In this document: positions 4,110 to 63,479 of the stretch, piece after piece
How the letters are laid out: each line of letters starts with the position of its first letter
Position numbering within the stretch: the stretch's first letter is position 1
NCBI RefSeq assembly: GCF_963921235.1
Contig: NC_086098.1
Span: 155,806,001 to 155,870,000, forward strand
Reading direction: 5' to 3'
Length of the DNA stretch: 64,000 nt
DNA from: Mobula hypostoma
Lineage: Eukaryota
The notes under the pieces: generated by a model
The model's input: the letters and a program-made list of their open reading frames with translations, nothing else
Databases searched by the model: none
What the model was told of the DNA's origin: nothing
Position numbers and translations under genes: made by a program

Positions 4110-4919
4110 AAACTTTTACCTGAAACATTTGTAGACCAAACGTTGCGTTTCAAAATCTCAGAGATACATTTAATGTCAGAAACATGTATACAGTATTCAT
4201 CCTGAAATGCTTTTTCTTCGCAACCATCCATGAAAACCGAGGGCTTCCCCAAAGAATGAACGATAATTAACTGATAGCACCCCAAATTCCACCCCCCGGC
4301 TCCCCTCCTTCCCGCATGTAAGCGGCAGCAAGCATCGATCCACCCCCACCTCCACCGGCAAAAAAAAGCATCGGCACCCGACACCGAGCACTCAAGCGTG
4401 AGCAGAGCAACAGCAAAGACACAGACTTGCAGTACCCCAAAGACTACGCGTTCACCCGGCATACGACATACCGCAGGCTCTCGCTCTCTGGGAGAGAGAG
4501 ATGTCTCCGTTTTCACAGCAAGCGGGGAGACATAACAAACAACCCGCTGGATTACGGTATTGAAAGTCCGTAACGATCCGTTTTTTTCTGATCTCTGTGC
4601 CCATACATCTGGGCACACAGCCGTAGATATTTCCACTGCCAGACGACACACTGATCCCCTGCCGTGACACCGGCCTTCGATCCGCCCTTCTCCAGAGCCC
4701 CGACACGCTAGGCCTCCAAAGCCGAGCCGGACACTTAGGCCGAGCCTTTGGGGTGCCGAACAGCAACGCCCGGTTATGAAACTCCGAGAGCGGGTCGCAT
4801 TCCCGCAAAGAACAGCAGTCAGCGTGTAATGCCGGGTCAGAGACTTCAAAAGAACCCTGAAAGGGAAAAATAAAAATTCTAAAGATGGAGAGCTGTTTCC
4901 GAAGATGCAAGCAAAGCAG
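4110..4919 (-). mobile_element. Interspersed repeat (probable non-autonomous non-LTR element) split by the ERV; resumes at 14869
   Basis: Reads through as ...gcaagcaaag[c/g]ag|ERV|gccgccg. Architecture resembles the element at 16180-16800. No protein motif recognised. Confidence 0.45.
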
Positions 4920-5423
4920 TATTGGAAAACATTGTAACACTATAGTGAAACAACTGACTGTTTTCTAGGTATTTACTCAAGTGTGCTTTTACTACATATC
5001 AAGTGTTTATTCAGTATTCATTATGCTTTTATTGCACATCAAGTGTTTACTCCGGTATTTATTATGCCTTTACTACGCATTACGTGTTTGTTATTGAGTA
5101 CGTAGGGGATTTCTACGGTATATTACTATGTAACCATTGATTTATTAGCTGGAATGAAACCTGTGTACTATTAACCCCATGAGAAAGAAGAATGTAACCA
5201 AATAGAAAGATAAGGGTGGTTGATATATTAGCTAGAGTGAAACATACAGCAGTACACTAACGCAGTTAAGCCAGAAGGGGGCTATAAAGAACGCTGTGTA
5301 AAAAAGATCGGCGGGCATTCAGCGACTAGCTCACTGACTATCTCAGCTTTGATTTGCAAATTAAAGTTTAAAAACTTCTTGAAGAATCTTCTGCTTCTCC
5401 TGGTCATTTGTAAAATGGCGACA
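4920..5423 (+). repeat. ERV 5' LTR (504 bp)
   Basis: Matches 14365-14868 with about 35 differences counted by eye. TATAAA 5283-5288, ATTAAA 5360-5365, ends cgaca. 40-bp direct repeats in U3 at 4975-5080. Confidence 0.95.
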
Positions 5424-5427
5424 AAAC

Positions 5428-5445
5428 TGACGTAGTCGGTGGGAT
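5428..5445 (+). promoter_or_regulatory. Primer binding site, tRNA-Ser-like
   Basis: TGACGTAGTCGGTGGGAT vs TGGCGTAGTCGGCAGGAT, the complement of the vertebrate tRNA-Ser 3' end as I recall it; 15/18 match, 4 nt after the LTR. Confidence 0.75.
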
Positions 5446-6100: not shown

Positions 6101-8311
6101 ATGACAGGGGAAGGAACGGCAGTAGAAATACTGAGCAAAATATTCCCGGTGTGTTAAGGTAAGATCGCGGAAATTTCAGAAAAATTGGAAAAAAGAACCA
6201 CAAATCTGCACACGAAATGGCCGAAAGAAGGAACATTTGATGTAAGTTTATGTGAGGAAATGGAGGCGCTGATTAAAAATCACAAACCAAGAGATAAATC
6301 CAAGAAAGGAGAGTAAAAAAGAAAACAGGAGACAGAAGTGTTAAAACTCTTTAGGATGGAGGGAGAAAGATTGAGAAAGAAAGGAAGAATATCAGTAGTA
6401 AGTAAAGAAGACACTGAGAAACAAGAAGAGCAGTCTTGTAAACCACAGGAGAAACAGAATAAGGAGCCGACTCTATACCCAGACCTGAGAAATGTAGAAA
6501 CCACTGCACCCCGCCCCCGCCCCCCCCCCCAATTACGAGAAGGAGACTCATAAACAATGCCCTGTATTATCAGGAAAACTAGAACTCAGGGGAGAGTTTA
6601 AAGTCTGGGATACCGAGGAGGAAAGAAGAAAATCTGAGGAGGAGAGGGAGGCACTGTGGAAGGAGATGCAGGAAGACAAGAAAAAAGTAGAACGAGAAAG
6701 TGAGATAATAACAGAATGTATTAAAGAGTTGTGGGAATGGAGACTGAGGAAAAATCCGGAGGAATTCCTGTTACAGGAACGCGACACAACAGGCTGGAAG
6801 AGAAGATGACTTATCAGAAGAGCAAGAGTCAAGTAATGAATATGAGGGAACAAGAGAGTGTAGACGGGGGATAGAAGAGGATAGCCTTGAAGAGGAAAAA
6901 GAGAGAGTGGAAAGGGAGCTAAGAGAAGCGGAGAAAGAGTGTAGGATATTACAGCGGGAATTGGGTTTCCCACTGGGTTTCCAACAAAAGTTTGAGGAAT
7001 TCACGAGGACCCGAGCAAATGCTAGCCCGAATCAGAAAGGGAGGACTCCAAGAAGATGTCAAGAGAAAATAGGAAAACAAGGGAGAGAGGAAACCCCGGA
7101 GAGATTTGTGTGGCAGCCAGTAAGAACAAGGTCAGAAGGAGATGAGGAGTCGGTTGAGGAGGAAAATCAGAATACGGGGAGAGAAGGAAAAAGTGATGCC
7201 GTTGTTAGTAAAAAGATCGGGACAAATACAGTATGCTCCTTGGGGCTCCCAGGACCTGGAAGGGCTGAGAAACACCGTGCCTAGCTTACATGAAGGAGCA
7301 GGGAGGTGGATTAGAGCATTTGAAGAAGAAACCACGGGACGGTTATTGGCTATGGGAGATTTGAAGGCACTGCTGATAAGGTTGATGGGAACCTCCAAAT
7401 TAAAAGAGCTGATGGAAACGGCTGGACTATTAAATGCGTTCATCGGGAACAGCTTTGACCAAGTGAGGCAGAAGATATGGAAGGCCCTCAGGAAGTTTTA
7501 CCCACCCAAAGTGGACCCCAAAGTCTGAAAGGGGATCCGCTGGGGGACATTGAGAATCCAGCAGCCTATGTAGAGAATCAGTTAAAAAGGTGGAGACTGG
7601 AGACTGAGCAAGAAGTGGAAGGCAACTCGTTTATGAGCATACTGTTCAGAACCATCGTTTTGGACACAATGCCTCCGCAAGTTAAATCTAAACTGGAGGA
7701 AGTGGTCGGACTGACGTCAATGAACTCACATGAATTTAGAGACCACGTACTCCATGCGGTTGAGAAATATCGGAAAGACAAACGGAAGCTGATTGAGCAG
7801 CAGGAAGAGGTGCAAAGAAAGCTAATGCAAATGCAGCTTAAGAACTCAAAAAGAAGGAAAAAGAGAAGGGAAAAAAGATGCTGCTAGTAGCACCCGATTT
7901 GAGTGCAACCGTTGAAATGAATGAAACACCACTGTATGGAGGAACCGGTCGCGCTGTCAGACAGGGGCCAGAAAACCCCATGCCAATAATAAACGTCTTT
8001 GGAGGAGCATTCCCACGAATGCCCTATCAGGAACAGAGTAAACTTAAACAGCAGCCCAGACAGGACTGGAAATCCCAAGCAGGGGGACAGAGAGGTTATG
8101 GACAAAGAGGGCCAGTGAGGAGACAAGGGGAGAGAGAGATAGAGAGACTGAGCTGGGGCTGTAACCAGCCAGGACACATGAGAAGAGACTGTCACTCAGG
8201 TCATTATCCGTTACTTACCAGCAGGGACCGATGAGAAGGGAACCGCAGATTAGACAAGGACCAGCCCCCACAGGCTCAGGTGGACCCGTGAACCCTTATG
8301 CAAGATGCTAG
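6101..8311 (+). pseudogene. gag: ERV gag (multiple stops and frameshifts)
   Basis: MTGEGTAVEILSKIFPVC* start; YPDL late-domain motif 6476-6487; capsid PWGSQDLEGL...WIRAFEEET; zinc knuckle (S)WGCNQPGHMRRDC 8151-8192 with the first Cys lost; ends GGPVNPYARC-TAG (8309-8311). Confidence 0.9.
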
Positions 8312-11300
8312 GGGTGCCCAGAGAACCCAGGTGGGAAGGGACATTACCCAGTGATAACAAGGGAGGCGGAAGAGGAACCCATTGTTCAGGTTATGTTAGA
8401 AGGCCAATGACACCCATGATGATAGAGACTGGAACCACGTATACCTGTGTACAGCCGCAGTATGCCCTTCGCCTTCCCAGTCAGGAAAATTTATTAACAC
8501 TGTAGGGTTCTCGGGGAAAACACAGTTAACAACAATGCACAGCTCCAGTACGGTTGGGGATGGGCAGTAAAAGAATAGTTCTGCCAGTACTAGTGTCCAA
8601 AGGAACCCCGATTAATATGCTAGGCAGAGATGCCCTATTAAAACTAGAATTAAAATTAGAATGCACTAGAAATGGGTTGAGTGTGGAAAGAGCGAATACT
8701 CAGTTAGTAGTGCGGGAAATCAAGAAAGCTAATGTTTCCTGGATAGGAGACATAGAAGATCAGATCTGGGAAACCTGGGAAAAATGGAAAACGAGCGTGC
8801 AGGCTATATTTCCCAAGGCGGTAGCGCCCAAGTCTGAGTTACATTGCACAGTAATTTTTGACGAGACTCAGAGTGAGAAGTTAGAGGAGAGATGGCACGA
8901 GGGGACATGTACCCGGTAGCACCTAAGAGGAGAGGCTATAATAATTGGAAAGCAAGGGGCAGCCCTACAAGTCAGGTGAAACACCTTCTTGGAGAAATGG
9001 TATAGAATACCGGAGGCTGTGCCCCACATAACGTTGCTGGTGAATGAAGGATACCAGTCTAAAGACCTAGAACCCTTAGTAAAACGTGCTGGAACCGTAA
9101 CGGTTTGGAGGAAAATCATGCCGGAGGTATGGGCATCGGGAGACAACAACTACATTAAAATAATGGTAGATATTGATATGACAGGAACTATAAAGGAGGT
9201 CGAAGTAATTCCTCAGCTGCACATGTCACTATTGGAAAAGGGGAAAGATCAGGAAAAAGATAACAGGCTGAATAGGTTACCATCTATTCTGTGGTCGCAA
9301 TATGACACGGACGTAGGGAGAAGAAAAACAGCCAGTCCGGTAGAAATAAAACTGGAAAAGGAAGCAGTTCCACCTTGGAGACCACAATACCCTCTAAGAC
9401 CAGAAGCAGAGGAGGGAATAGCACCCACGATACAGGGGTTATTCGAAGCAAGCGTACTTAAGAGGGTAGATAGTCCATGTAATACCCCGCTGCTGCCCGT
9501 CTTCAAAGCGGACAAATCCAAATGGAGACTGGTACATGACTTACGAGCGGTAAATGAGGTAGTGGAGGAATGGCTAGCGGTAGTCCCCAACCCGCACACG
9601 CTTTTGACTAACGTTCCGCCGGAATCAAGTTATTTTTCAGTGATTGATTTGTGCTCAGCTTTCTTCAGCATTCTTCTGGCCGATCAGTGTCAGTATCTAC
9701 TTGCATTTACATGCAGAGGAAACCAGTATACCTATACAAGAATGCCGCAAGGATTTAAGCACCCACCGCGCATTTTTAATCGAGTATTAAAGGCAGACCT
9801 ACAGGGAGTACCGTTGGAAAGTACATTGATACTTTATGTGGATGATTTGTTAATCTGCTCCGAAAGTGAGGAGCAGCGTGAACAGGACACCATAACCCTT
9901 TGAGAAAGACTGGCGTAAGGAGGACATAAGGTATCCAAAAAGAAGTTGCAATTCTGTAAGCAACAGGTAGAATACCTAGGTAGGGTAATCTCCAAGGGAA
10001 TGAAGGTGATAGCGCCGGATCAAATTGAGGCAATAACTAAAGCTCCTAAACCCCAGACAGTAAAGCAGATGATGAAGGTTTTAGGATTACCAGGATACAG
10101 TTCAGACTGGATTGGGGGATATACTGAAATCGCAATGCCATTAAGGGAACTAGTGAAGGAAGCAGGACATACAAGTTTGAAGAATGGCCTACAGTGGAAT
10201 GAGGAGGCGGAAATAGCGTTTAATACTATTAAACAGGAATTGCAGTCAGCCCCAGCGGTAGCTTTGCCCGACTATGGGAGGGACTACCATCTGTATGTAT
10301 CCAACCAGCAGGAGGGCACTGTCGCAGTGGTTCTGACACAAGAGACGGACACAGGAAAAGCAAAACAGACAATAGCACACTATAGTGCGAAATGGATGAA
10401 GTGACTCAGGGGTACCTACCCTGCTATCAGAGACTGGCAGCATTGTACTATGCCTATGAAAAGGCATCATCCATGACCATGGGCTACCCTGTGATCCTGT
10501 ACACACACCACAAGGTAGCCGAATTACTGGAAAGAGGTAAATTCGTGTTGACACCAGCCAAAATAGCAGCATATCAGATGTCATTGACATTTCCAGATAT
10601 AACTATACAGAGATGTACCACCAGTAACATAGCTGATTATGTCCCCTTGGGTCATGAAGGAGAACCCCATGACTGTGTAAGGGAGGCAATGGTATTTGCC
10701 AAATTAAGAGCGGATTTACGATCCGAACCACTAGAAGATGAAGATAACAAGATTTTCTTTGTAAATGGCTCCTGTTATAGGGATTATGAAGGAAATCATG
10801 CAGCTTTCTCAGTAGTGCAGCAGGATCAGACAAGGTTTAAGACTATTAGAATGGAAGCTTGCCCCCAACCGTGTTCAGCCCAGTTTGCGGAAGTCAAAGC
10901 CCTGACAACAGCGTGCGAAATGATGGAAGGTGAGAAAGTAGACATTCATACTGATTCGGCATATGCACATGGAGTGTGTCATTTGCCTGGGGCAGTGTGG
11001 AAACAGAGAGGCTTTAAGAAGGGTAATGAAGATCCCATACAGCACTGTCAGCAAAATTTAGATTTAATAACAGCGATGATGAAACCCAAAGCGCTTACTA
11101 TAGTGAAGTGTCAGGCACATAAAAAAGGAAACGATGTAATAACCAAGGGAAATCAAGCTGCAGACGAAGCAGGCCGGAAAGCATCTGGATGTACGTTGGC
11201 CATCATTGCGCCCCAGGTAAGCTTGGACCCGGAACCTATGGTAGAGGACCGGATTGAAATACAAGGTAAGGCAACTTTGGCAGAGCAGACAATGTGGAGA

Positions 11301-12646
11301 CGAAGGGGGGCCAAGCAGAACCCAGACGGTCTGTGGAGCACGGAGGACGGTTTATTGGTAGCACCCACCCCGTGTTGACTATCCTGATTTCAAAAGCGCA
11401 TGGGGTGGATCATTGTGCAAGGGGGGACGTGATAAGGAAAATAAAAAAGGACGGGTTTTGACCGCCTTATCTACAGGCTTCAGTAGACCATGTTTTGTCG
11501 CAGTGCGAGGTATGTGCACAGAATAATGTTTGGAAAGGAATTACAACCGCAATAGGTCATATACCCCTGCCCGAAGGGCCATTTAAACATTTAGTCATTG
11601 ACTACGTAGACATGATAACGACAGTAAGAGGGAAAAGATACATGTTAGTAGTAATTGACAGATTCAGTAGATGGGTAGAAGCGGCACCCTCGAAAGATCA
11701 AGGGGCAGGAACAGTAGTAAAATTCCTGACAAACGAGGTGATCCCAAGATTCGGAATACCTACAGAAGTCAGCTCAGACAATAGTTAAGCGTACATCCAA
11801 AAGCTGGTCAAATTAGTACTGCAAGCAGTAAGAATAAAGCACAGGTTTGGATGCGTGTATCACCCTCAGTCGCAGGGCATGGTGGAAGGAATTAACGGGA
11901 CGCTAAAAACCAAACTGAATAAAATTTGTGCGGGTACTAAACTCAACTGGATCGACGCGCGGCCGCTAGCGTTAATGAGTTACGGCATGCAAACTAATCG
12001 AGTGACGTGTCTAACCGGAAGGCCCATGCCAGTGCCCCAGTGGAGAGGACCATACAAAGGGCCTAACTTGGAACAATTGGAAGTAGAAGTAAAACAATAC
12101 ATGCAGCAACTAACCATGATACATAAGTCTATCTATGCACAGGAAAAACGGAAAGAACCGGAGATCGTGCAAAGGGAAGGACCAATCAAGCCAGGAGATC
12201 AGGTCTCTGTGCGAGCTTTTCGAAGAAAGTCGAACGAACCAAGAAGGGAAGGGCCATTTACGGTAACCAAGGCGCCACCCACCGCAGTTCAAGTAGAGGG
12301 ACGCTCCACCTGGTACCATCTCAATCTCTGCAACAGAGCAGTCCCGCAGGTACAGCCAGGTGTGGAGCCCGAGGTAAGTGGTAAAGAGGAACGGATAGCA
12401 GGGGACAGTCAAGAGGAACAAGAAGCTGTCACTGCACCACAGGAGTTTGATCGGACGATAAGGGAAGTTTTTGGTTTTGAGAACAGGTCTGACGACCCTA
12501 AGGATGGTGTTGTGGATAGTAGTACTCCTTCAGATAGTGAGGATAACTTGGGAGCGACCAGTCTTGCCCCTTGGGATGAAACACCCACAAACCCCTATAC
12601 GGACTTGGAAACCACTAATTTGGCAGATATGGCATGGGAATGTTAG
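8312..12646 (+). pseudogene. pol: ERV pol: protease, putative 2H domain, RT, RNase H, integrase (disrupted)
   Basis: PR MMIETG (8425-8433, D replaced by E) and MLGRD; RT RLVHDLR, IDLCSAFF, MPQG, YVDD 9835-9846; RNase H FVNGS, AEVKAL, HTDSAY; IN zinc finger H..H..CEVC, LVIDYVDM, SSDNS, HPQSQGMVE, GPF motif. Confidence 0.95.
8700..9230 (+). other. Putative 2H phosphoesterase domain between protease and RT
   Basis: LHCTVIF (H at 8842) and VPHITLL (H at 9025) lie in one frame 61 codons apart, with a GKQGAAL strand between them; two premature stops (8917, 8977). Confidence 0.7.
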
Positions 12647-14212
12647 AACTCCGCAAACCTTAAAAGAAAGGAGTAAGCGGAGCGCAACAGTTACCTCTTT
12701 GCAGTGGCAACAGACACGTACTAGCCAGTGGTACCAATGGGCACAATACACAGCAGGAATGATGGAGAGACAGAATTGTTATCTGTGCTCCAGGGCGAAG
12801 CCCGTACAACACGTAGCCCCCAAGCCTTATAACTCCTCCACCTGCACTCAATGGCGAAAGGAGCGGAGGGGGCAGTGTGCGCAGCAGTGTCCAAGTGTAG
12901 TCAAGACTTGCAACATGGGAATCTGTAGCGGGACGGATCCTTGTTATCAGAAATGTATTGACAACACCCCTTATTTCCCTTATTGGTGTATGCTATCCCA
13001 AGCCTCCTCGCAATTCGATCGAAACGTGCTTGCCCCTAAATGTAATTATAGCAGACCTTGGGCCATCAGTAAAAGAAGTCAGACCCCCACAGTGGGAAAA
13101 TTGATAGTGCAGGATCATTTGAATTATGAATGCTTTACACGGATAGGTGCTTTTTCGGTTGGCCATTTTAGGGGTAACTGCGTCTGGACTTGGGGTGTAA
13201 CCCCAGGCCGAAGATACATAGTAGGTACCCCTCCACCCGAAGGTGCGTTGGATGTCCAGAACATCCCATTAACAGACACTTGGTGGCTGTGCGGAATGGA
13301 GGAAGGCCTGAGATCGACGCTTCCTCTTAGTTGGGCAGGTACATGTACACGGGTTATGCTGATTCAAGAAGTTGTAGTATCCCCTGAAGTATAATTTGAC
13401 ATCCGGAGCAGCAGACACTGCGGTGGAAGAGGCGAAAATATGAACCTGACCCAACGATCCGAATCGACAGTACAGGACAGCCGAGAGGTATACCTAACGA
13501 GTTTATGGTAAGAAACGAGATTTCTGCTAGCTGGGAAGCAATTATACCTGTAATAGGGGCTAGCAAAAACGTTGAGTGGATAAATTATATATATTATAAT
13601 CAACAGAGATTCATTAACTACACCAACGATGCGCTGGAGGCACTAGGACAACAGTTGGATGCAACTAGTAGAATGGCGTGGCAGAATAGACAGGTGTTAG
13701 ACTGGCTGTTGGCAGAAAAAGAAGGAGTTTGTGTAATGTTTGGAGAACAGTGCTGTACTTTTATACCAAATAACACTAGTCCGGAGGGATCATTTACTAG
13801 AGCAATGAACAAATTGAAAAGTCTGAGAAGAGAAGTTAGACAGAATGCAGGGCTCGGACATCAGCTATTTGGCTGGTTAGATAGTAAACTAGGGGGATGG
13901 GGAGCATGGCTAACCAAGTTAGCGATAACTGTAGGTATTGTATTGGTAAGCTGTGCGATTGTTTTGTGCTGTTTTCTTCCGTGTCTCCAGTCCCTTATAG
14001 TGCGGGCCACAATAGGACGTTTTCCAATGCTCCTGAAAATTGCTGAATCAAGACCAGTGGAAAGAGAAGTACCGATGATGTACTCTTACAGCTTACACGA
14101 CATGCAACATGTACAGGAGGGAAATGATAATGTAGGAATAGACTGTAAAGGCTCCAGAGTCTTTTTTCCTGTCTCAGACACAAAGAGACAGGTTTTTGGC
14201 TCAGTGGCCTAG
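12504..14212 (+). pseudogene. env: ERV env, gamma-type (SU and TM), one frameshift at ~13390-13400
   Basis: Hydrophobic signal MVLWIVVLLQIV; RSKR 12669-12680; CYLC 12777-12788; RWKR cleavage site 13421-13432; ISD WQNRQVLDWLLAEKEGV; CVMFGEQCC (CX6CC); TM anchor LAITVGIVLVSCAIVLCCFLPCL. Confidence 0.92.
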
Positions 14213-14364: not shown

Positions 14365-14868
14365 TATTGGAAAACATTGTAACACTATAGTGAAACCACT
14401 GACTGTTTTCTAGGTATTTACTCAAGTGTGCTTCTACTACATATCAAGTGTTTACTCGAGTACTTATTATGCTGTTATTGCCCATCAAGTCTTTACTTAG
14501 GTGTTTACTGTGCCTTTACTACGCATTAAGCGTTTGTTATTGAGTACGTAGGGGATTCCTACGGTATTTTACTACGTAACCATTGATTTATTAGCTAGAA
14601 TGAAACCTGTGTACTATTGACCCCATGAGAAAGAACAATGTAACCAAGTAGAAAGATAAGGGTGGTTTATTTATTAGCTAGAGTGAAACATACAACAGTA
14701 CGCTAACGCAGTTAAGCCAAAAGGGGGCTATAAAGAACGCTGTGTAAAAAGATGGGCGGGCATTTAGCGACTAGCTCACTGACTGTCTCAGCTTTGATTT
14801 GCAAATTAAAGTTTAAAAACTTCTTGAAGAATCTTCTGCGTCTCCTGGTCATTTGTAAAATCACGACA
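14365..14868 (+). repeat. ERV 3' LTR (504 bp)
   Basis: Copy of 4920-5423; TATAAA 14729-14734, ATTAAA 14805-14810, ends cacgaca. Confidence 0.95.
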
Positions 14869-19585: not shown

Positions 19586-22400
19586 AGTATGATATTGTGG
19601 CCATCATTGAGACGTGGCTGAAGGATGCATGTCTCTGGGCGCTGAACGTCCAAGGATACATGGTGTATCGGAAGGATAGGAAGGTAGGCAGAGGGGGATG
19701 CGTGGCTTTATTGGTAAGAAATGATATTAAATCATTAGAAAGAGGTGATATAGGATCAGAAGGTGCAGAATCTTTATGGGTTGAGCTAAGAAATCGCAGG
19801 GGTAAAAGGACCCTGATGGCAGTTATTTATAGGCCTCCAAACAGCAGCAGGGACGTGGACTACAAATTATAAACAGGAAATAGAAAACGATTGTCAGAAG
19901 GGCAGTGTTATGATAATTATCGGGGATTTTAACATGCGAGTGGATTGAGAAAATCAGGTCGGCACTGGATCTCAAGTGAGAGAACTTGTAGAATGTCTGC
20001 GAGATGGCTTTTCAGAACAGCTTGTTGTTGAGCCCACTAGGGGATCGGCTGTACTGGATTGGGTATTGTGTAATGAACCGGAGGTGATTAGAGAGATTGA
20101 GGTGAAGGAACCCTTAGGGGCCAGTGATCATAAAATGATTGAGTTCACTGTGAAATTTAAAAAGGAGAAGCCGAAATCTGATGTGTCGGTATTTCAGTGG
20201 AGTAAAGGAAATTACAGTGGCATGAGAGGGGAACTGGCCAGAGTTGACTGGAAAGGGACACTGGCGGGAAAGACGGCAGAGCAGCAGTGGCTGGAGTTTA
20301 TGCGAGAAGTGAGGAAGATGCAAGACAGGTATATTCCAAAAAAGAAGAAATTTTCGAATGGGAAAAGGATGCAACTGTGGTTGACAAGAGAAGTCAAAGC
20401 CAAAGTTAAAGCAAAGGAGAGGGCATACAAGGAAGTAAAAATTACTGGGAAGACAGGCGATTGGGAAGTTTTTAAAACCTTACAAAAGGAAACTAAGAAG
20501 GTCATTAAGAGGGAAAAGATTAACTATGAAAGGAAGTTAGCAAATAATATCAAAGAGGATACTAAAAGCTTTTTCAAGTATATAAAGAGTAAAAGACGGA
20601 TGAGAGTAGATATAGGACCGATAGAAAATGATGCTGGAGAAATTGTAATGGGAGATAAGGAGATGGCAGAGGAACTGAACGAGTATTTTGCATCAGTCTT
20701 CACTGAGGAAGACATCAGCAGTATACCGAACACTGAAGGGTGGCAGGGAAGAGAAGTGTGCGCAGTTACAATTACGACAGAGAAAGTACTCAGGAAGCTG
20801 AATAGTCTAAAGGTAGATAAATCTCCCGGACCAGATGGAATGCACCTGCGTGTTCTGAAGGAAGTAGTTGTGGAGATTGCGGAGGCATTAGCAATGGTCT
20901 TTCAAAAGTCGATAGATTCTGGCATGGTTCCGGACGACTGGAAGATTGCAAATGTCACTCCGCTATTTAAGAAGGGGGCAAGGAAGCAAAAAGGAAGTTA
21001 CAGACCTGTTGGCTTGACATCAGTGGTTGGGAAGTTGTTGGAGTCGATTGTCAAGGATGAAGTTATAGAGTACCTGGAGGCATATGACAAGATAGGCAGA
21101 ACTCAGCATGGATTCCTTAAAGGAAAATCCTGCCTGACAAACCTATTACAATTTTTTGAGGAAATTACCAGCCGGCTAGACACGGGAAATGCAGTGGATG
21201 TTGTATATTTGGATTTTCAGAAGGTCTTTGACAAGGTGCCACACATGAGGCTACTTAACAAGATAGGAGCCCATGGAACTACGGGAAAGTTACGTACATG
21301 GATAGAGCGTTGGCTGATTGGCAGGAAACAGAGAGTGGGAATAAAGGGATCCTATTCTAGTTGGCTGCCGGTTACCAGTGGTGTTCCACAGGGATCTGTG
21401 TTGGGGCCGCTCCTTTTTACATTGTACATCAACGATTTGGATTATGGAATAGATGGCTTTGTGGCTAAGTTTGCTGACGATACGAAGATAGGTGTAGGGG
21501 CTGGTGGTGCTGAGGAAACGGAGAGTCTGCAGAGAGACTTGGATAGATGGGAAGAATGGGCAAAGAAGTGGCAAATGAAGTACAATGTTGGAAAGTGCAT
21601 GGTTATGCACTTTGGCAGAAGTAATAAACGGGCAGACTATTATTTAAATGGGGAAAGAATTCAAAGTTCTGAGATGCAACGGGACTTGGCGGTCCTCGTA
21701 CAGGATACCCTTAAGGTTAACCTCCAGGTTGAGTCGGTAGTGAAGAAGACGAATGCAATGTTGGCATTCATTTCTAGAGGAATAGAGTATAGGAGCAGGG
21801 ATGTGATGTTGAGCCTCTATAAGGCGCTGGTGAGACCTCACTTGGAGTACTGTGGACAGGTTTGGTCTCCTTATTTAAGAAAGGATGTGCTGACGTTGGA
21901 GAGGGTACAGAGAAGATTCACTAGAATGATTCCGGGAATGAGAGGGTTAACATATGAGGAACGTTTGTCCGCTCTTAGACTGTATTCCTTGGAGTTTAGA
22001 AGAATGAGGGGAGACCTCAGAAACATTGTGAATGTTGAAACGCAGGGACAGAGAGGATATGGCAAAGTTATTTCCCATGATGGGGGAGTCTAGTACGAGA
22101 GAGCGTGATTTAAGGATTGAAGGGCGCCCATTCAGTTCAGAACAGAAATGCAAAGAAATTTTTTTTAGTCAGAGGGTGGTGAATGTATGGAATTTGTTGC
22201 CAGTGGAGGCCAGACATTGGGTGTATTTAAGGTAGAGATTGATAGGTATCTGCGTAGCCAGGGCATCAAAGGTTATGGTGTGAAGGCGGGGCAGTGGGAC
22301 TAAATGGGAGAATGGATCAGCTCATGATAAAATGGCGGAGCAGACTCGATGGGCCGAATGGCCGACTTCTGCTCCTTTGTCTTATGGTCTTATGGTCTTA
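19586..22400 (+). mobile_element. CR1 LINE (HER1-like), 5'-truncated, near-complete ORF2 (EN and RT)
   Basis: AIIETWLKD, YRPPNS, GDFN, KSPGPDG, YLDFQKVFD, GVPQGSVLGPLLF, FADD; 705-aa ORF 19976-22093; (tatggtct)n tail. Confidence 0.95.
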
Positions 22401-23682: not shown

Positions 23683-24005
23683 TCAAGTACAGCGGGATCT
23701 TGCGATATTTGCCCGTAGAGGGTTTGTTTGGGTCTCGTGTTTTACCACACAGGAGTAAAGCTCGTGTGAGTTCCAGTCTGAGGCTTTCAATGTCAGGTAA
23801 CTGCTCACGCTGAACGTGTTGTCCGTCTCCTGTTGCAGTCGGCTGTTCTCAACGCCGTTCCTTCTCGCGCTGCCGTCCACAGCCCACTCAACATCCACAG
23901 CTCCCGGATTAAACCCGCTCACTAAACACACAAGGGTGGCGCTGCCCTTTACCCTGATTTCGTCCGCTGAAGGGGGCAAGACCGACACGACTGGGGGCCG
24001 AGGAT
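23683..24005 (-). CDS. IGLC: IgL constant exon C1
   Basis: C1-set Ig domain with ATLVCLVSGFNPG, EW, YSCVVKH and penultimate Cys; acceptor ttttaaaccag|AT. Confidence 0.97.
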
Positions 24006-26457
24006 CTGGTTTAAAAAAAACAGTGGCGGTTATGAAAAAGCCATAGAACCGTTCTTGCATCGCACTGACACATTCAATGTAATTAAACAAAACGTTTTTA
24101 TCTCTACACCTTCCCAAATAAGAAATCCATCCCGACTGTTTAGGCAGCACAATAATTTTCATTAAGGATGTTGGAATAAATCTAACAATACGACAGGAAT
24201 TACTTCTTTTAGTTCATTTTCACGGTTAATAAACAGGAAATATCGACATGATTTGTGAAGTGCATAATTGTGCAAAGTTAATTATTGTCTATTTACATAG
24301 CTGTCTCACATAGAAGAACCAATTACTCCTCGGGAACCCTAAAGTTCGAGAAGTACGATGCTAAATAGTTAAGTAGAAATATAAAATTGTGAAATTTGAA
24401 CTGTACTGATTCAATATCCCAAATTTTAAACCTTCTGTAATTCAGTTTAATATTCGAAAGCTATCAGTTCTGTTCTCCCTGTCGTGCTTTATTTTGAAAA
24501 CGTGTTGCAGCTAAAAGTAGATTTTTCAAATTAGTAATGTGATGCGTTAGAATCTTTTCATAACTGAATGAAGCAATCAAATTGTTAATGTTAAGCTTTA
24601 ATATTGAACAAAATGATCTTTAACAGTTTATGATGAAGAAGATACCCCGTAATGCAAAGAAACGAGGAAAATGCAGATACTGAATTTCTGAAATAAAATC
24701 TAAAAATGGTGGGTTACCCAAAAGTTTTTTATACTTTTATACTATATGAAGAGAAAAACGAACGAAATATTATAGGCCATTTCTGAAGTATTGTGGACAG
24801 AACACGTGGCCTAATTTCGCTCTCTGGATATCCTATATAGTAATTGTGAGAACGCGGGTGCTCAGGAATACGAACAGCCTCTATGTTTCCGTTCTTTCCT
24901 GTATTCGATTCTTCTCGGTGCCACAAACTCCTGTTGGGTTTCTTTCTATGTTACTTCCGAAGTAGACAGCTTTCATTGCAACTGAGATTTTGAATTTTAC
25001 GACCACGGGAACAAATACTCCGCGTAGCGTCTGGGAACACACATAAAAGTTGCTGGTGAACGCAGCAGGCCAGGCAGCATCTCTAGGAAGAGGTGCAGTC
25101 GACGTCTCGGCCTGAAACGTCGACTGCACCTCTTCCTAGAGATGCTGCCTGACCTGCTGCGTTCACCAGCAACTTTTATGTGTGTTGCTTGAATTTCCAG
25201 CATCTGCAGAATTCCTGTTGTTTGCGTAGCGGCTGGGATTGGATTGTACCAGTCACAGCCTAACCAGCATAAGTATTTATTGATATCAATTTATGTAGAT
25301 ATACAGCGCAGAAAAGGCACTTCCTCTTCCGCACCGCCCGCAAACCCTTGAGAATCCCCGATTACTTCTAATTATTTAACAAGAGACGGCAATAAGATTG
25401 CAATTGGTATAAAAGGTATAAAATGGTATATGTTCGATGTTTCTGGGCAAATAGAAGAACGCACAAAATAAACTCGGCTCAACATAAGCCATGCAAATCG
25501 TGAGGGTACCTATTAAGACTGTCAGGGATCCATTTTTAGAACCGCTGTGAACACTGCATCGCGGTAACACAGTACCAACTGACAAACAAAACGATCATTC
25601 ATTGTCAGCTGCAAACGCTCTGGGTGCTACTTTTCTTTTATATTTTGAAATTGAGAGCTATTTCATGAAAGGTTGGAGGAAACTATTAACTTTCATTTCC
25701 AATTGTTCTGTTCAACCGTTCGAACGGGAGGGGGAAACGTGCGCAGGCAGTGAGGGGTTGTGGGCGGGTGAGGGTGGTGATGTTGACGATGTGGTTAACG
25801 TTAGAACAGGAGAGCAAGATTCGATAAAGACAAACTCATTATGGTTGCATATTCTCGGCAGATTTAAAGTTAGATTATGCAATTAATTTAGAACGTTAAC
25901 AATAACTCACACAGTGCCTTAGAAAGAAGAAATTTTACTTACTGCCCACTGCCACCCTTGTTCCTTTTCCAAATATTAAGGCGTTTTTCCACATGGCGCA
26001 GTAATAGTCCGCTGCGTCCTCCGATTGAACGTTGGATATTGTAAAATATCCCGTATTGCCCGACTGAGAACCGGAGAACCTTTCTGAAACTCCCGGACCT
26101 CGTCCAGGGCTTCCCTTGCTGGACCAATAATAGACTAAAAGTCGGGGAGTCTTTCCGGGAATCTGCTGATACCAGGACACACCGTCATAATTCCCTAAAC
26201 TGGCCCCGGACATGGTACAGCTTAATTGTAAGTTCTGCCCCGGACTGATCGACTTCGATAGCGGCTGAGTTACTGTAACTTCTGCGCGTAAATCTGAAAA
26301 AAATGCGACATATTTATAACAATAGTTTATAATGAAAAACGTGAGGGAAACGTTCCGGTGAATCGTCCTTGAGAAGAAATCTAATATCGCGGAAAATAAA
26401 ATACTTACAATTCGCAAGATAAAGGAGCGCACTGACAACACGGATCCAGTAAGACAT
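23683..26457 (-). CDS. IGL: Immunoglobulin light chain, lambda-like C, germline-joined VJ; exons 26457-26409, 26293-25943, 24005-23683 (723 nt, 240 aa)
   Basis: All introns GT-AG and phase 1; the spliced frame is open: MSYWIRVVSALLYLANYLRA-EVTVTQP...C...WYQQ...DYYC-AMWKNALI-FGKGTRVAVG-NPRPPVVSVLPPS...ATLVCLV...YSCVVKHE...RSRCT*. Confidence 0.95.
25030..25223. mobile_element. Penelope-end-derived fold-back insertion (70-bp arms, 11-nt loop) with 8-bp TSD GCGTAGCG
   Basis: Arms 25036-25105 and 25117-25186 match 69/70; TSD at 25022-25029 and 25224-25231; empty site in the paralog near 42310. Confidence 0.9.
25943..26293 (-). CDS. IGLV-J: Germline-joined V-J exon
   Basis: Continuous frame from FR1 through YYC, an 8-aa CDR3 and FGKG with no RSS or intervening DNA; acceptor tttttttcag|AT, donor GGCA|gtaagt. 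Confidence 0.95.
26409..26457 (-). CDS. IgL leader exon
   Basis: ATG...AAT T|gtaagt encodes hydrophobic MSYWIRVVSALLYLAN; 115-bp intron to the V exon. Confidence 0.9.
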
Positions 26458-26565
26458 TGTAAATGACCGAATTAAGTCGGGCAGGGCAACAATTTCTGGA
26501 TGAAGTGGTTTGTAAACTTGTTGCCAACGCGCTTATGAAGTATGTTGCAAAGTGTCACCTCATTA

Positions 26566-50487: not shown

Positions 50488-51925
50488 TGTCATGGTCCGG
50501 ATCGGGATCCCTTTAAATTTACCTTGTTTATGTTACGATCCCGACCGTTGATTCCCTGTTTTCCCGTGTCCCTCGACTTTGGTGATTAGAGGCAATTAAC
50601 GCTTGGCTGAACCGGTAGTTTATAGTCTCCGGCTTTCAGCCGTTCAGTGCGGGAGCGTCTGCAAAGTCACGGCGTGCCAATATCATCTGGCCGGTGCAAG
50701 CCTTATCTCCGCCCGAATCGAGTGCCGGTAATTCGCCTTTCCTCACCGGAGCGAGCCTGCAAAGTTTCCTCTTCAAGGTGGGCCCGTCAGTTAACCCGCC
50801 GCTGAGAATCAAGAGCCGCTGTCTACTGTTCCCGGGCCGAGTCCAGAGCTCGGCACTACCCGGAGGTCCGAAGCACCACGTCCTGGCTCCGGCGGCATCC
50901 AAGTGCCACGTCCACGTCCTGGCTCCGGCGGCATCCAAGTGCCACGTCCACGTCCTGGCTCCGGCGGCATCCAAGTGCCACGTCCACGTCCTGGCTCCGG
51001 CGGCATCCAAGTGCCACGTCCACGTCCTGGCTCCGGCGGCATCCAAGTGCCACGTCCACGTCCTGGCTCCGGCGGCATCCCATTTCCGAATCAAGTCCTG
51101 GCCCTGGCAGTCTGTGATTCCTGTCCTATCCCCCTGTCTGAATCCCTTCTCTGCCCCTCTCGCCTCTGGCCCTCATCTGCAGCCCCTGCCTGCAGTTCGG
51201 TATAGTTCCATCACCGGAGCTAGATAGGTACTGTCTGGTGTTCATTCGTGTTGGTCTTGTCTTGTCCTGCCCTCGCCTTCATGGGGTAAGTCAGGCCGTC
51301 TTGCCGTTGCCCCGCGGCGAGTCGTGTCTGTCTTGTCTTGTCCTCGCCTCCGTGGGGTAAGTCAGGCCATCTTGTCGTTGCCTCGCGGGGGGTGGGGGGG
51401 GGTGGGTCATGTCTTGTCGTGTCTTGTCCTGGTCTCCGTGGGGTAAGTCAGGCCGTCTTGCCGTTGCCCCGCGGAGGGACATGATTCCCGGCCCTATGTC
51501 CTGTACCCAAGGAGGGGTCCTGACTCTGTGTTCTGTGTATGTATCCATGGTTCCATGTACCTGCTCTCCCGAGACCGAGGCTCTGTTTTCTATGTTCCTC
51601 CTCTCCCTAACCCATGTCATGTCCATGCCTGGTTCTGGGGTCCGTGCCCGAGGCAAGAACCAGGTACTGGGTCCTTGCCCAGTCTCGGGCTCGGAGTCCA
51701 ACCCCTAGCCTCTTCATGTCTCCTCTAGTTCTGGGAGCCAATTCCGAGTCCTAGCCCAGACCCTAGGTCCCAGCCTAGTCGAGGTCCTGAGTCCTTATCC
51801 TGTTCGCTATTCCTACTTCTGTCTTGCTCTCCTGGTATCGTACAATAAACTAAACCTAAGTAACCTCACAAGATGTGTCTTGCATTTGGGTCCACCCGTG
51901 CTCCCAATGCCCCGCCATTGTGACA
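50488..51925 (+). mobile_element. Solo LTR family A (1438 bp, TGTCA...TGACA) with 5-bp TSD GTCCA
   Basis: gtcca|tgtca ... tgaca|gtcca; the CR1 ORF1 frame rejoins across the insertion. Confidence 0.92.
50876..51080 (+). repeat. Perfect 36-bp minisatellite, 5.7 copies
   Basis: Unit ccacgtcctggctccggcggcatccaagtgccacgt; copies identical, no spacers. Confidence 0.97.
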
Positions 51926-54526
51926 GTCCACAATATCCTGAAGTGGGAAGGAGAACAGCCAGTGGTCCTGGAACATATTGGTACCAACCACATTGGTAGG
52001 AAAAAGGAGGAGGTCCTGAAAATAGACTACAGAGTGTTAAGAGGGAAGTTGAGAAGCAGGACCTCAAAGGTAGCAATCTCAGGATTACTGCCTGTGCCAT
52101 GTGACAGTGCTGAGGGATTGGAGCAGGGGGCAGGGATTCAGATATCTGGATCTTTGGGACCTCATTTGGGGCAGGTGGTACCTGTACAAAAAGGATAGTT
52201 TGAATCCCAGGGGGAACCAATATCCTGGGAGGGAGGATTGCTCAAGCTATTGGGGAGAGTTTAAACTCGAATTGCTGAGGGGTGGGAACCGAACTGAAGT
52301 GACAGAAGAAGGGGCGGTTGGCTCACAAGTAGAGAAAGCTTGGAGACAGTGCGAGATGGAGGATAGGCAGGTGATAGAGAAGGGACGCGCTCAGACCGAT
52401 GTTTTGAGATGTGTCTATTTTAATGTGAGGAGAATTATGAACAAAGCGAGTGAGCTTAGAGGGTGGATCAGCCATTACAGATATTGTAGCCTTTACAGAG
52501 ACTTGGATGGTGCAGCGTCAGGAGTGGCTACTTCAAGTGCTCGGCATTAGATGTTTCAGAAAGTACAGGGAGGGAGGTAAAAAAGGTGGTTGTTCAGCGA
52601 TAGTGTCACGGCTGCAGAAAAGTAGGAAGTCACGGAGGGGTTGTCTACGGAGTCTCTGTGGAGGTTAGGAATAGGAAGGGATCAATAACTCTACTGGGTG
52701 TTTTTTATAGAGCACCCAATAGTACAGGGACATCGAGGAGCAGATACGGAGATTCTGGAAAGGAGTAATAATAACAGGGTTGTTGTGGTGGGAGATTTCA
52801 ATTTCCTAAATATTGATGGGCATCTCCCTAGAGCGAGGGGTTTAGATGGGGTGGAGTTTGTTACGTGTGTTCAGGAAGGTTTCTTGACACAATATGTAGA
52901 TAAGCCTACAAGAGGAGAGGTTGTACTTGATCTGGCATTGGGAAATGAACCTGGTCAGGTGTCAGGTCTCTCAGTGGGAGAGCATTTTGGAGATAGTGAT
53001 CACAATTCTACAAACGTTTGTATCTCTTTTACCATAGCATTGGAGAGGGATAGGAACAGACAAGTTTGGGAAACGGTTAATTGGAGTAAGGGTAAACATG
53101 AGGCAATCAGGCAGGAAATTGGAAATAGATGTTCTCAGAGAAACGTACAGAAGAAATGTGGCAAATGTTCAGTGGCTATTTGTGTGGGTTTCTGCATAGG
53201 TACGTTTCAATGAGACAGGGAAAGGATGGTAGGGTACAGGAACCGTGGTGTACAAAGGCTGTTGCAAATCTAGTCAAGAAGAAAAGAAAAGCTCACGAAA
53301 GGTTCAAAAAACTAGGTGATGATAGAGATCTAGAAGGTTAGCAGAAAGAGTTTAAGAAGGAAATTAGGACAGCCAGAAGGGGCCATGAGAAGGCCTTGAC
53401 CGACAGGATTAAGGAACACCCCAAGGCATTCTACGAGTATGTGAAGAACAAGAAGAAAAGATGAGAGAGAATGGGAACCATCAAGTGAGACAGTGGAAAA
53501 ATATGTATGGAAACGGAGGAGACAGCAGAGGTACTTAATGAATATTTTGCTTCAGTATTCACTAGGGAAAAGGATCTTGGCGATTGTAGGGATGACTTGC
53601 AATGGATTGAAAAACTTGAGCATGTGGATATTAAGAAAGAGGACGTGCTGAAGCTTTTGGAAAGCATCAAATTAGATAAGTCACCGGGACCAGATGGGAT
53701 GTACCCCAGACTACTGTGGTAAGCGAGGGAGGAGATTGCTGAGCCTCTGGCGATGTTCTTTGCATCATCAATGAGGACGGGAAATGCTCCAGAGGATTAG
53801 AGGGTTGAGGATGTTGTTCCCTTAAGAAAGAGAGCAGAGTTATCCCAGGAAATTAAAGACTAGTGAGTCCTACTTCGGTGGTTGGTAAGTTGATGGAGAA
53901 GATTCTGAGAGGCAGGATTTATGAACATTTGCAGAGGCATAATATGATTAGGAATATCAGCATGGGTTTGTGAAAGGCAGGATATGCTTTACGAGCCTGA
54001 TAGAATTTTTGGAGAATGTGACTAAACAAATTGATGAAGGTAGAGCCATAGATGAAGTGTATATGGATTTCAGCAATGAATTTGATAAGGCTTATTGAGA
54101 AGTAAGGAGGCAAGGGAGGCAAGGGGCTTGCCCACAGAAGGCAAAGTGTGGTTGTAGATGGATCCTATTCTGCATGGAGGTCGATCACCAGTGGTGTGCC
54201 TCAGGGATCTGTTCTGAGACCGTGATTTTTATAAATGACATGGATGAGGAAGTAGAGGTTAGTAAATACGTTGATGACACAAAGCTTAGGAGTGTTGTGG
54301 ATAGTGTAGAGGTCTGTCAGAGGTTACAGTGGGACACTAATAGGATGCAAAACTGGGCTGAGAAGTGGAAGATGGAGTTCAACCCAAATGAATCTGAGGT
54401 GATTCATTTTGGTGGGTCAAATATGATGGAGGAATATAGTACTAATGGTAAGAATCTTGGCAGAGTGGAGGATCCAATGGATCTTGGAGTCCAAGTCCAT
54501 AGGACACTCAAAGCTGATTTATCATG

Positions 54527-55439: not shown

Positions 55440-56770
55440 TAAGAAACATAAGAACATAAGAAGTAGGAGCAGGAGTAGGCCATTCGGCCCATCGAGCATG
55501 CACCGCCATTCAATAAGATCATGGCTGATCTGTCCGTAAACTCAGCTCCATCTACCTGCCTTTTCCCTATAACCCTTAATTCCCCTACTATGTAAAAATC
55601 TATCTAATTGTATCTTAAATGTATTTAGTGAAGAAGCCTCAACTGCTTCCCTGGGCAGAGAATTCCACAGATTCACCACTCTCTTGGAAAAACAGTTTCT
55701 CCTCACTTCCGTCCTAAATCTTCTCCCCTGAATTTTGAGGCAATATCCCCTAGTTCTAGTCTCACTTACCATATGGAAACAACTTTTCTACTTCTATCTT
55801 ATCTATCCCTTTCAAAATTTTGTATGTTTCTCTAAGATCCCCTCTCATTCTTCTGAACTCCAGAGGCGACTCAGTCTCTCCTCATATGGTGACTCCTTCA
55901 TCTCTGGAATCAACCTGGTGAACCTCCTCTGCACTGCCTCCAAAGCCAGTATATCTTTAGTCAAGTATGGAGACCAGAACTGCTCACAGTCATCCAGGTA
56001 CGGCTTCACCAGTACCCTGTATAGTTGCAGCATGCCCTCCCTGCTCTTTAATACAATCCCTCTAGCAATAAAGGCCAACATTCCGTTTGTCTTCTTAATA
56101 ACCTGTCGTACCTGCAAGCCAACTTTTTGCGATTCATGAACAAGTACTCCCAAGTACCTCTGCACAACAGCATGCTGCAATCTTTCACCATTTAAATAAT
56201 AATCCGCTCTTCTTTTGTTCCTTCCAAAGTGATGATCTCGCATTTACCAACGTTGTATTCCATCTGCCAGACCTTGACCGACTCACTTAACCTATCAATA
56301 TCCCTCTGCAGACTCTCCATATCCTCTACAATTTGCTTTTCCACTTAGTTTGGTGTCATCAGCAAATTTTGCTACGCTACTCTCAGTCCCCTCTTCCAAA
56401 TCATCAATGTAAATGGTAAACAGCTGCAGGCCCAGCACTGACCCCTGAGGCACCCCACTCACCACCGACTGCCAACCGAAGAAACATCCATTTATACCAA
56501 CTCTCTGCCTTCTGTTGGTTATCCAATCCACTATCCATGCCAATATACTTCTTCCAACTCCACGTATCCGAATCTTATTTAAAACTCTCTTGTGCATCAC
56601 CTTATCAAACGCTTTCTGGAATTCCAAGTGTACGACAGCCACCTGTTCCCCTCTGTCCACTGCACTCATTATGTCCTCAAAGAACTCCAGTAAGCTTGTC
56701 AAACAGGACCTGCCCTTTCTGAATCCATGCTGTGTCCGTCTAATGGAACCCCTCCTTTCTAAATTTTAAC
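55440..56770 (-). mobile_element. CR1 RT 3' fragment
   Basis: HLEFQKAFDKV, GVPQGSVLG, FADDTKL; cataagaa tail at 55440-55465. Confidence 0.9.
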
Positions 56771-60668: not shown

Positions 60669-63479
60669 CCATAAGACACAGGAGCAGACGTAGGCTATTC
60701 GGCCCATCGAGTCTGCTCCGCCATTTTATCATGAGCTGATCCATTTTATCCTATTTAGTCCCACTGCCCCGCCTTCTCACCATAACCTTTCATGCCCTCG
60801 CTACTCAGATACCTATCAATCTCTGCCTTAAAGACACCCAATGACTTGGCCTCCACTGCTGCCCGTGGCAACAAATTCCATAGATTCACCACCCTCTGAC
60901 TAAAAAAATTTCTTCGCATTTCTGTTCTGAAAGGGCGCCCTTCAATCCTGAAGTCATGCCCTCTCGTACTAGACTCCCCCATCATGGGAAACAACTTTGC
61001 CACATCCACTCTGTCCATGCCTTTCAACATTCGAAATGTTTCTATGAGGTCTCCCCTCATTCTTCTAAACTCCAAGGAATACAATCCAAGAGCGGACAAA
61101 TGTTCCTCATATGTTAACCCTCTCATTCCCGGAATCATTCTAGTGAATCTTCTCTGTACCCTCTCCAACGTCAGCACATCCTTTCTTAAATAAGGAGACC
61201 AAAACTATCCGCAGTGCTCCAAGTGAGGTCTCACCAGCGCCTTACAGAGCCTCAACATCACATCCCTGCTCCTATACTCTATTCCTCTAGAAATGAATGC
61301 CAACATTGCATTCGCCTTCTTCACTACCGACTCAACCTGGAGGTTAACTTTAAGGGAATCCTGTACGAGGATTCCCAAGTCCCGTTGCGTCTCAGAACTT
61401 TGAATTCTTTCCCCATTTAAATAGTAGTCTGCCCGTTTATTTTTTCTGCCAAAGTGCATAACCATACACTTTCCAACATTTTACTTCATTTGCCACTTCT
61501 CTGCTCATTCTTCCAATCTATACAAGTCTCTCTGCAGACTCGCCGTTTCCTCAGCACTACCGGCCCCTCCACCTATTTTCGTATCGTCAGCAAACTTAGC
61601 CACAAAGCCCTCTATTCCATAATCGAAATCGTTGATGTACAATGTAAAAAGAAGCGGCCCCAACACTGATCCCTGTGGAACACCACTGGTAACCGGCAGC
61701 CAACTAGAATAGGATATCTTTATTCCCACTCTCTGTTTCCTGCCAATCAGCCAATGCTCTATCCACGTATGTAACTTTCCTGTAATTCCATGGGCTCTTA
61801 TCTTGTTAAGCAGCCTCATGTGTGGCACCTTGTCAAAGGCCTTCTGAAAATCCAAATATACAACATCCACTGCATCTCCCTTGTTTAGCCTACTGGTAAT
61901 TTCCTCAAAAAATTGTAATAGGTTTGTCAGGCAGGATTTTCGTTTAAGGAATCCATGCTGGGTTCTGCCTATCTTGTCATATGCCTCCAGGTACTCTGTA
62001 ACCTCATCCTTGACAATCGACTCCAACAACTTCCCAACCACCGACGTCAAGCTAACAGGTCTATAATTTCCTTTTTGCTTCCTTGCCCCCTTCTTAAATA
62101 GCGGAGTGACATTTGCAATCTTCCAGTCGTCCGGAACCATGCCAGAATCTATCGACTTTTGAAAGATCATCGCTAATGCCTCCGCAATCTCCACAACTAC
62201 TTCCTTCAGAACACAAGGGTGCATTCCATCTGGTCCAGGAGATTTATCTACCTTTAGCCTATTCAGCTTCCTGAGTACTTTTCTGTCGTTATTGTGACTG
62301 CGCACACTTCTCTTCCCTGCCACTCTTGAGTGTCCGGTACCCTGCTGTCTTCCTCAGTGAAGACTGATGCAAAATACTTGTTCAGTTCCTCAGCCATCTC
62401 CTTATCTCCCATTGCAATTTCTCCAGCATCATTTTCTATCGGTCTTATATCTACTCTCACCCGTCTTTTACTCTTTATATACTTGAAAAAGCTTTTAGTA
62501 TCCTCTTTGATATTATTTGCTAACTTCCTTTCATAGTTAATCTTTTCCCTCTTAATGACCTTCTTAGTTTCCTTTTGTAAGGTTTTAAAAACTTCCCAAT
62601 CCTCTGTCTTCCCACTAATTTTTACTTCCTTGTATGCCTTCTCCTTAGCTTTAACTTTGGCTTTGACTTCTCTTGTCAACCACGGTTGCATCCTTTTTCC
62701 ACTCGAAAATTTCTTCTTTTTTGGAATATACCTGTCTTGCACATTCCTCATTTCTCGCACAAACTCCAGCCACTGCTGCTCTGCCGTCTTTCCTGCCAGT
62801 GTCTCTTTCCAGTCAACTTTGGCCAGTTCCTCTCTCCTTTACTCCACTGAAACACCGACACATCAGATTTCAGCTTCTCTTTTTCTAATTTCACAGTGAA
62901 CTCAATCATGTTATGATCACTGCCTCCTAAGGGTTCTCTTCACCTCAATCTCTCCAATCACCTCCGGTTCATTACACAATACCCAATCCAGTACAGCCGA
63001 TCCCCTAGTGGGCTCAACAACAAGCTGTTCTAAAAAGCCATCTCGCAGACATTTTAGAAATTCTCTCTCTTGAGATCCAGTGCCGACCTGATTTTTCCAA
63101 TCTACTCGCATGTTAAAATCCCCCACAATTATCATAACACTTCCCTTCTGACAAGCCTTTTCTACTTCCAGTTGTAATTTGTAGTCCACGTCCCTGCAGC
63201 TGTTTGGAGGCCTATAAATAACTGCCATCAGGGTCCTTTTACCCCTGCTATTCCTTTGCTCAACCCATAAAGTTTCTGCACCTTCCGATCCTATATCACC
63301 TTTTTCTAATGATTTAATATCATTTCTTACCAATAAAGCCACGCCTCCCCCTCTGCCTACCTTCCTATCGTTCCGATACACAGTGTATCCTTGGACGTTC
63401 AGCTCCCAGAGACATGCATCCTTTAGCCAGGTCTCAGTGATGGCCACAATATCATACCTGCCAATCTGTAGCTGTACAA
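60669..63479 (-). mobile_element. CR1 LINE (HER1-like), 5'-truncated, near-complete ORF2; same subfamily as 19586-22400
   Basis: AITETWLKD, YRPPNS, GDFNMR, KSPGPDG, YLDFQKAFD, GVPQGS, FADD; several frameshifts. Confidence 0.95.

Follow-up and report, generated by a model that had tools for sequence, protein, structure and literature searches.

What lies between the protease (PR) and the reverse transcriptase (RT) in the Pol of an endogenous retrovirus (ERV) of the ray Mobula hypostoma, and what could it do for a virus? The element lies in a stretch of 64,000 nucleotides (contig NC_086098.1, positions 155,806,001 to 155,870,000), which we call the window. Unless a contig is named, coordinates refer to the window. 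A first-pass annotation had proposed a 2H phosphoesterase-like domain at this place. It also suggested what the domain might do: block 2-5A signalling (its lead idea), degrade cyclic dinucleotides, or act on 2',3'-cyclic-phosphate ends of RNA and primers. Our preferred answer, with a probability of about 0.6, is that this epsilon-like Pol contains a domain with a predicted CNPase-like fold, likely a 2',3'-cyclic-phosphate 3'-phosphodiesterase and likely packaged.

A single reading frame from 8602 leads from the end of PR (LGRDALLKL) through LHCTV and PHITL to the start of RT (LWSQYDTDVG). The two His-x-Thr motifs are HCTV (8842..8853, His codon at 8842) and HITL (9025..9036, His codon at 9025). 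They are in one frame and 61 codons apart, just as first described. When the domain was shuffled 100,000 times, a motif pair 50-100 residues apart arose in 0.15% of the shuffles. The gap between PR and RT had been given as about 170 codons. The intervening 2H region is there, but the length has to be corrected: the end of PR and the start of RT are about 205 codons apart (8662-9279), and the folded domain takes up about 160 codons (8728..9207, residues 23-182 of the AlphaFold2 model). Two stops interrupt the domain here, a TAG (8917..8919) and a TGA (8977..8979). Each is private to the window copy (1 of 49 copies).

The PR-2H-RT region is enclosed by an LTR-flanked provirus of about 9.95 kb, all of it on the forward strand. 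The 5' LTR (4919..5423) and the 3' LTR (14365..14868) are 93% identical over 505 columns, and the limits of the 5' LTR agree with copy L074/L075. A clear target-site duplication was not found. Near 5428 lies a primer-binding site, presumably for tRNA-Ser. A broken gag follows (6101..8308, with a probable start at 6101 and a zinc knuckle near 8160, zf-CCHC E 0.004), which ends in an amber stop (8309..8311). The protease is frameshifted (8375..8660, start approximate; the last piece matches Pfam RVP at E 0.022). Downstream of the 2H domain are a broken RT with RNase H (9280..11185; RVT_1 E 3e-19, RNase_H E 5e-18), a broken integrase (11500..12330, limits approximate; rve_3 E 0.018, MLVIN_C E 5e-10) and an env with one stop (12462..14212; TLV_coat E 4e-9 for the second piece).

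The provirus is an epsilon-like, fish-type retrovirus. It has the features of epsilon-like class I fish ERVs: the order LTR-gag-pro-pol-env, a gag amber stop in the pol frame, an integrase C-terminus of the MLV type and an env of the TLV type. In an RT tree without a named virus RT, the ray copies group with ERV proteins of medaka and Hucho (support 0.97). The codon at the end of gag is TAG in 44 of the 47 copies in which it is ungapped (49 were examined), which fits readthrough into pol.

The window copy is dead. In the part of pol that we examined there are four frameshifts (near 8407, 8479, 8531 and 10392) and five premature stops (8917, 8977, 9901, 9916 and 10402). Stops also interrupt gag, and a substitution has hit one domain column that is otherwise near-invariant. 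The two stops noticed at first are real, but the damage extends well beyond them. In four of the five copies checked (among L074-L083) the LTRs are 73-84% identical to those of the window, whereas the domain region of pol is about 91-95% identical. The LTRs thus either diverge faster or have been exchanged.

The rest of the window holds sequences of other kinds. Fragments of LINE-type RT/endonuclease lie at 19949-22093 and 52689-53213 on the forward strand and at 56295-56765 and 61505-63486 on the reverse strand. A perfect tandem repeat (50876-51080) consists of 5.7 copies of a 36-base unit, with several frames open. An Ig light-chain-like gene is found on the minus strand (25935-26471 and 23683-24213). 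Its V-set exon has a J-like segment already attached (YYC...FGKGT); about 1.7 kb further downstream comes a C1-set exon. Light chains joined in the germline are a typical feature of cartilaginous fish.

Does the domain fold like a 2H enzyme and, if so, like which one? We ran AlphaFold2 on a 60-row alignment with the window copy first and X at its stops. The resulting model has a pLDDT of 88.7 and a pTM of 0.83, and its top Foldseek matches are all CNPase (E 2e-6). VIA gave Z 16.3 for human CNPase (1woj, rmsd 2.5 over 157 residues), 12.2 for Trl1, about 8.9 for LigT and 8.5 for ns2. A structure search against 48,161 chains placed CNPase first as well (Z 15.2, rmsd 3.7, 161 residues aligned), with the next chain at 9.4. 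MHV ns2 (8.5), VP3 (7.7) and AKAP18 (7.4) are further away, as are Acb1 (7.3) and the penguinpox cGAMP PDE (6.4). All 21 rows with Z >= 5 in this search read as 2H-type chains, two of them by our own assignment. Judging from the model, the domain almost certainly has a 2H fold and very probably belongs to the CNPase branch. The superfamily call of the first-pass annotation is upheld by fold and motifs; the branch chosen for comparison is not. We rejected membership of the ns2/VP3/AKAP7 branch, for which the scores (Z 7.2-8.5 for ns2, VP3 and AKAP18) are about half of that for CNPase.

Sequence details point the same way. Among the matches listed, motif 1 reads His-Cys in 60 of 85 relatives (the host CNPase exon has LHCTTKF), an aromatic residue stands at His1+5, the position of CNPase Phe235, in 76 of 91, and a glycine stands at His2+15 in 78 of 88, the spacing of H309 and G324 in the mouse enzyme. 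The model also has a helix after motif 2 (DSSP residues 133-143, 9058..9090) that is placed like helix alpha7 of CNPase. From its sequence position and the overall superposition we infer that the two are counterparts. According to PMC5283653 and PMC3290555, alpha7 is unique to CNPase and blocks nucleophiles larger than water, Gly324 is important, and Phe235 and Val321 hold the base. Of seventeen PDB matches to the family profile, 16 are CNPase or RICH, each of them weak (E 0.6-2), and hhalign aligns the family to the host CNPase exon at E 4e-4 with a probability of 35%.

The likeness to CNPase has limits. Sequence identity is only about 10-16%, and the motifs are about 61-63 residues apart compared to 79 in mouse CNPase. 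Two residues of the CNPase pocket, one that sandwiches the base and one for the phosphate, are altered: among the matches listed, the Val321 position is Lys or Arg in 76 of 91 relatives and the Arg307 position is mostly Val or Ala. None of 60 members reaches a Pfam 2H cut-off. Their weak matches range from E 0.003 to 0.17, the best being Acb1 (0.003, one of 60), CNPase (0.011, one of 60) and 2_5_RNA_ligase2 (0.013, six of 60). Searches with a single sequence gave no identification either (Pfam only E 0.12, PDB phmmer nothing relevant).

A profile search for a non-retroviral donor gave 19 proteins and identified no such donor; the named proteins were all from fish. In the Atlas, the nearest clusters (0.96) hold tRNA-ligase CPD-like proteins from phages and Euglenozoa, and a donor other than vertebrate CNP is therefore conceivable. 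The host CNP gene has introns and lies on contig C91. There are two sets of its exons, separated by about 180 kb (G000:C91:33775300-33783154 and 33954317-33963341), with nearly identical translations; the exon order in the first set is apparently reversed. The second set reflects either a duplication or an assembly artefact. We rejected a full-length vertebrate CNP gene as an explanation of the locus itself, because the domain directly follows PR and has neither introns nor the N-terminal kinase-like domain.

A search of the host genome with the domain, with the stops read as X, returned at least 127 matches (150 of 184 candidates were scored), which is a number of matches and not a copy number. 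We aligned 49 loci, the best 30 and 19 hand-picked full-length ones, and left out a twentieth fetched locus, L031, as a different family. Because the full-length matches were picked by hand, the set leans toward well-preserved copies. Of the 49 copies, 42 retain both motifs and 27 have an uninterrupted core. The motifs, whose survival in the window copy the first-pass annotation pointed out, are conserved within the family.

The copies fall into two subfamilies, with 94% identity within and 85% between them. Over the 147 columns of the core, the subfamilies differ by 25 synonymous and 16 nonsynonymous changes, a dN/dS of 0.14 (binomial p 2e-8). The corresponding values are 0.09 for the PR piece and 0.05-0.07 for RT, and the constraint on the domain is slightly below that on RT (p 0.04). 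Private changes, in contrast, are near neutral (0.56 and 0.98; fixed versus private p 3e-5). The domain evolved under purifying selection. Constrained fixed changes together with near-neutral private ones show that selection acted during viral replication and that the copies decayed after insertion.

At least one other ERV family in the genome also has the domain: the omitted locus belongs to a second, distant family (L031:4818-5141, that is G000:C24:214317-214640), at about 27% identity. Around motif 2 this family is nearer to host CNPase, with 13 of 23 residues matching it across the motif, and there is no Pfam match at E 0.01. A search with this type of domain gave 69 matches, among them another group at 35-45% identity.

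The domain is not confined to the ray. The domain profile matches 161 cluster representatives at E 0.001 or better. For conservation we used the best 150 of them and one extra protein, 91 of which gave at least 130 domain residues. Both His-x-Thr/Ser motifs are kept in 77 of the 90 relatives without gaps in the motif columns, among the matches listed; P0064, an apparent false match, is scored as a miss in this count. At 20-40% identity, no columns are better conserved than those of the two His and the two Thr/Ser. Pfam found retroviral Pol domains in 25 of 26 mostly long relatives. The domain sits after PR and/or before RT wherever these are present, except in P0071, where it follows an RT match. 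Of 30 clusters looked up, 15 carry an organism name, and all 15 are teleost. The closest named proteins (69-71% identity) are from the stingray Hypanus sabinus. Pairwise distances of the domain and of RT are correlated (r 0.64, p 2e-4; 17 of 21 sequences, with near-duplicates dropped). This correlation shows co-inheritance of the domain with RT and not co-evolution with hosts. If the domain is active, it would be a fifth enzyme, and a conserved one, in the Pol of a large retroviral lineage.

What would such an enzyme do? One His would protonate the 3'-oxygen of the ribose and the other would activate a water molecule. If the alpha7-like helix admits water only, then 2',3'-cyclic nucleotides and RNA ends with a cyclic phosphate (RNA>p) would become 2'-phosphates. 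We consider this chemistry probable. Among the roles first suggested, an enzyme for 2',3'-cyclic-phosphate ends fits best; the narrower idea of RNA or primer-end repair is kept as a rival below. The domain would be made as part of Gag-Pol by readthrough of the gag amber stop and would be packaged into virions with it. There it could be freed by PR or stay on RT. Its origin may be a single old capture of a CNP-like gene that was shortened later.

The purpose can be stated only tentatively. The enzyme may clear from viral RNA the cyclic-phosphate products of host RNases and thus lower their value as innate-immune signals, a proposal that falls a little short of even odds. 2',3'-cGMP is a TLR7 ligand. 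PMC8406329 describes cyclic-phosphate RNAs as stimuli of RIG-I/MDA5, NLRP3 and TLR8. A bolder version is doubtful: that fish retroviruses bring a captured CNPase into the cell as an enzymatic counter to cyclic-phosphate sensing, which destroys both 2',3'-cGMP and RNA>p from RNase-digested viral RNA. It would make the domain a viral 2H immune antagonist distinct from the degraders of 2-5A and cGAMP, and one kept across bony and cartilaginous fish. The purpose of CNPase's own activity is still called unclear in a 2024 paper (PMC11629607), and the function of the retroviral domain would bear on that as well.

Alternatively, the same chemistry could serve replication. In the virion, the domain would heal 2',3'-cyclic-phosphate ends, either of the primer tRNA or of genomic RNA that has been nicked, and so free a 3'-OH for RT. 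Wherever a long relative has both PR and RT matches, the domain has its fixed place beside RT in Pol, it is inherited together with RT, and at a dN/dS of 0.14 its constraint is near that of the core enzymes. However, a Pfam scan of the element found neither a ligase nor a kinase partner, the leftover 2'-phosphate may itself hinder priming, and the constraint on the domain falls slightly short of that on RT. To our knowledge, mammalian gammaretroviruses replicate without the domain, which we also count against this reading. We regard it as unlikely, if the best of the alternatives.

Degradation of the cyclic dinucleotide 2'3'-cGAMP, which would blunt cGAS-STING sensing of reverse transcripts, is less likely still. 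The host genome contains STING exons, the altered pocket residues permit a changed substrate and a weak Acb1 match occurs in one of the 60 members. Furthermore, viral 2H enzymes have repeatedly acquired cGAMP cleavage, according to PMC11410667 and bioRxiv 10.1101/2025.08.21.671373. Yet the known cGAMP enzymes fit the model far worse than CNPase does (Z 6.4-7.3 against 15.2), and an alpha7-like helix would leave less room in the site for a dinucleotide.

The lead idea of the first-pass annotation, a phosphodiesterase that cleaves 2-5A and so blocks RNase L in the manner of coronavirus ns2 and rotavirus VP3, we now consider very unlikely. The host itself would allow it. Its genome has 11 matches to OAS-like exons; about three OAS-like genes are clustered at G000:C78:31043513-31173778, and a decayed copy lies at C59:16066590-16069988. 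A search for the KEN domain of RNase L gave two exon matches, both of which look like IRE1; this does not amount to absence of RNase L. PMC10400998 places the OAS-RNase L pair in cartilaginous fish and its loss in the ancestor of ray-finned fish. All 15 clusters with an organism name are teleost, and the motifs are conserved there despite this loss, which makes 2-5A antagonism unlikely. A 2-5A role is possible in the ray host, but it cannot explain conservation in teleost viruses. Besides, ns2, VP3 and AKAP18 reach only about half the Z of CNPase, and 2-5A cleavage would need that side of the active site which alpha7 shuts off, going by PMC5283653 and PMC3290555. Placement with CNPase and persistence in hosts without OAS-RNase L together shift the focus from 2-5A to cyclic-phosphate substrates. 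Least probable of all is a binding domain or spacer in which catalysis has lost its importance, such as a decoy for host CNP: CNP is listed as an HIV-1 matrix binder and inhibitor of particle formation (PMC7471995), but conservation is highest at the two His and two Thr/Ser positions, as would be expected of an active enzyme.

How does a packaged cyclic phosphodiesterase, the reading we prefer, compare with known systems? CNPase and fish RICH (PF05881; 1woj, 2xmi, 2i3e) are alike in predicted fold, in the HCT of motif 1, in the aromatic residue at His1+5 and in the helix and Gly after motif 2. They differ from the domain in size (210 residues compared to about 160), in motif spacing (79 compared to 61), at the Arg307 and Val321 positions and in their N-terminal kinase-like domain; the domain also stays below the Pfam cut-off. 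The cyclic phosphodiesterase domain of fungal Trl1 (PF08302; 6u05) has the next-best fold (Z 12.2), and PF08302 is carried by 31-75% of members in the nearest Atlas clusters. It matches less well than CNPase, and the ligase and kinase domains of Trl1 are absent here. The enzymes ns2, VP3-CTD, AKAP7, Acb1 and the avipox cGAMP PDEs have in common with the domain the 2H fold and the paired His-x-Thr/Ser, but reach only Z 6.4-8.5 (ns2, VP3, AKAP18, Acb1 and avipox PDEs). 2H structures outside CNPase, such as AKAP18, have no helix alpha7 (PMC5283653, PMC3290555), and viral 2',5'-PDEs have a separate, AKAP7-like origin according to PMC10835031.

The closest systems are fish retroviruses. The best match among viral-model folds is a further polyprotein (E 4e-12), and the polyproteins of WEHV-1 (E 5e-11) and WDSV (E 1e-8) are among the best. 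The PR-domain-RT order and the motifs of the ray element recur in teleost ERV proteins. A WDSV-type accessory gene was not recognised among the longer ORFs scanned in the ray element. Full-text literature searches turned up neither an experiment on what a retroviral 2H domain does nor an elasmobranch report of one, although supplements could list retroviral members. In PMC10835031, PMC11410667, PMC8406329 and the Doherty preprint, 'retrovir' is absent from the text; the elephant-shark ERV paper PMC4422223 contains neither 'CNPase' nor 'phosphodiesterase'.

That 2H/CNPase domains occur in walleye and other teleost retroviruses is already known. The 2H inserts that the first-pass annotation mentioned for teleost retroviruses can be traced to two sources: PMC9503650, citing Mazumder 2002, mentions 2H domains in fish retroviruses such as WDSV, and PMC4977317, citing Basta 2009, states that epsilon-like ERVs of ray-finned fish can encode CNPase. 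Compared to WDSV, WEHV-1 and the teleost ERVs, the host here is a cartilaginous fish. What our analysis adds is the ray member, the diagnosis of its 2H subfamily and the evidence of selection.
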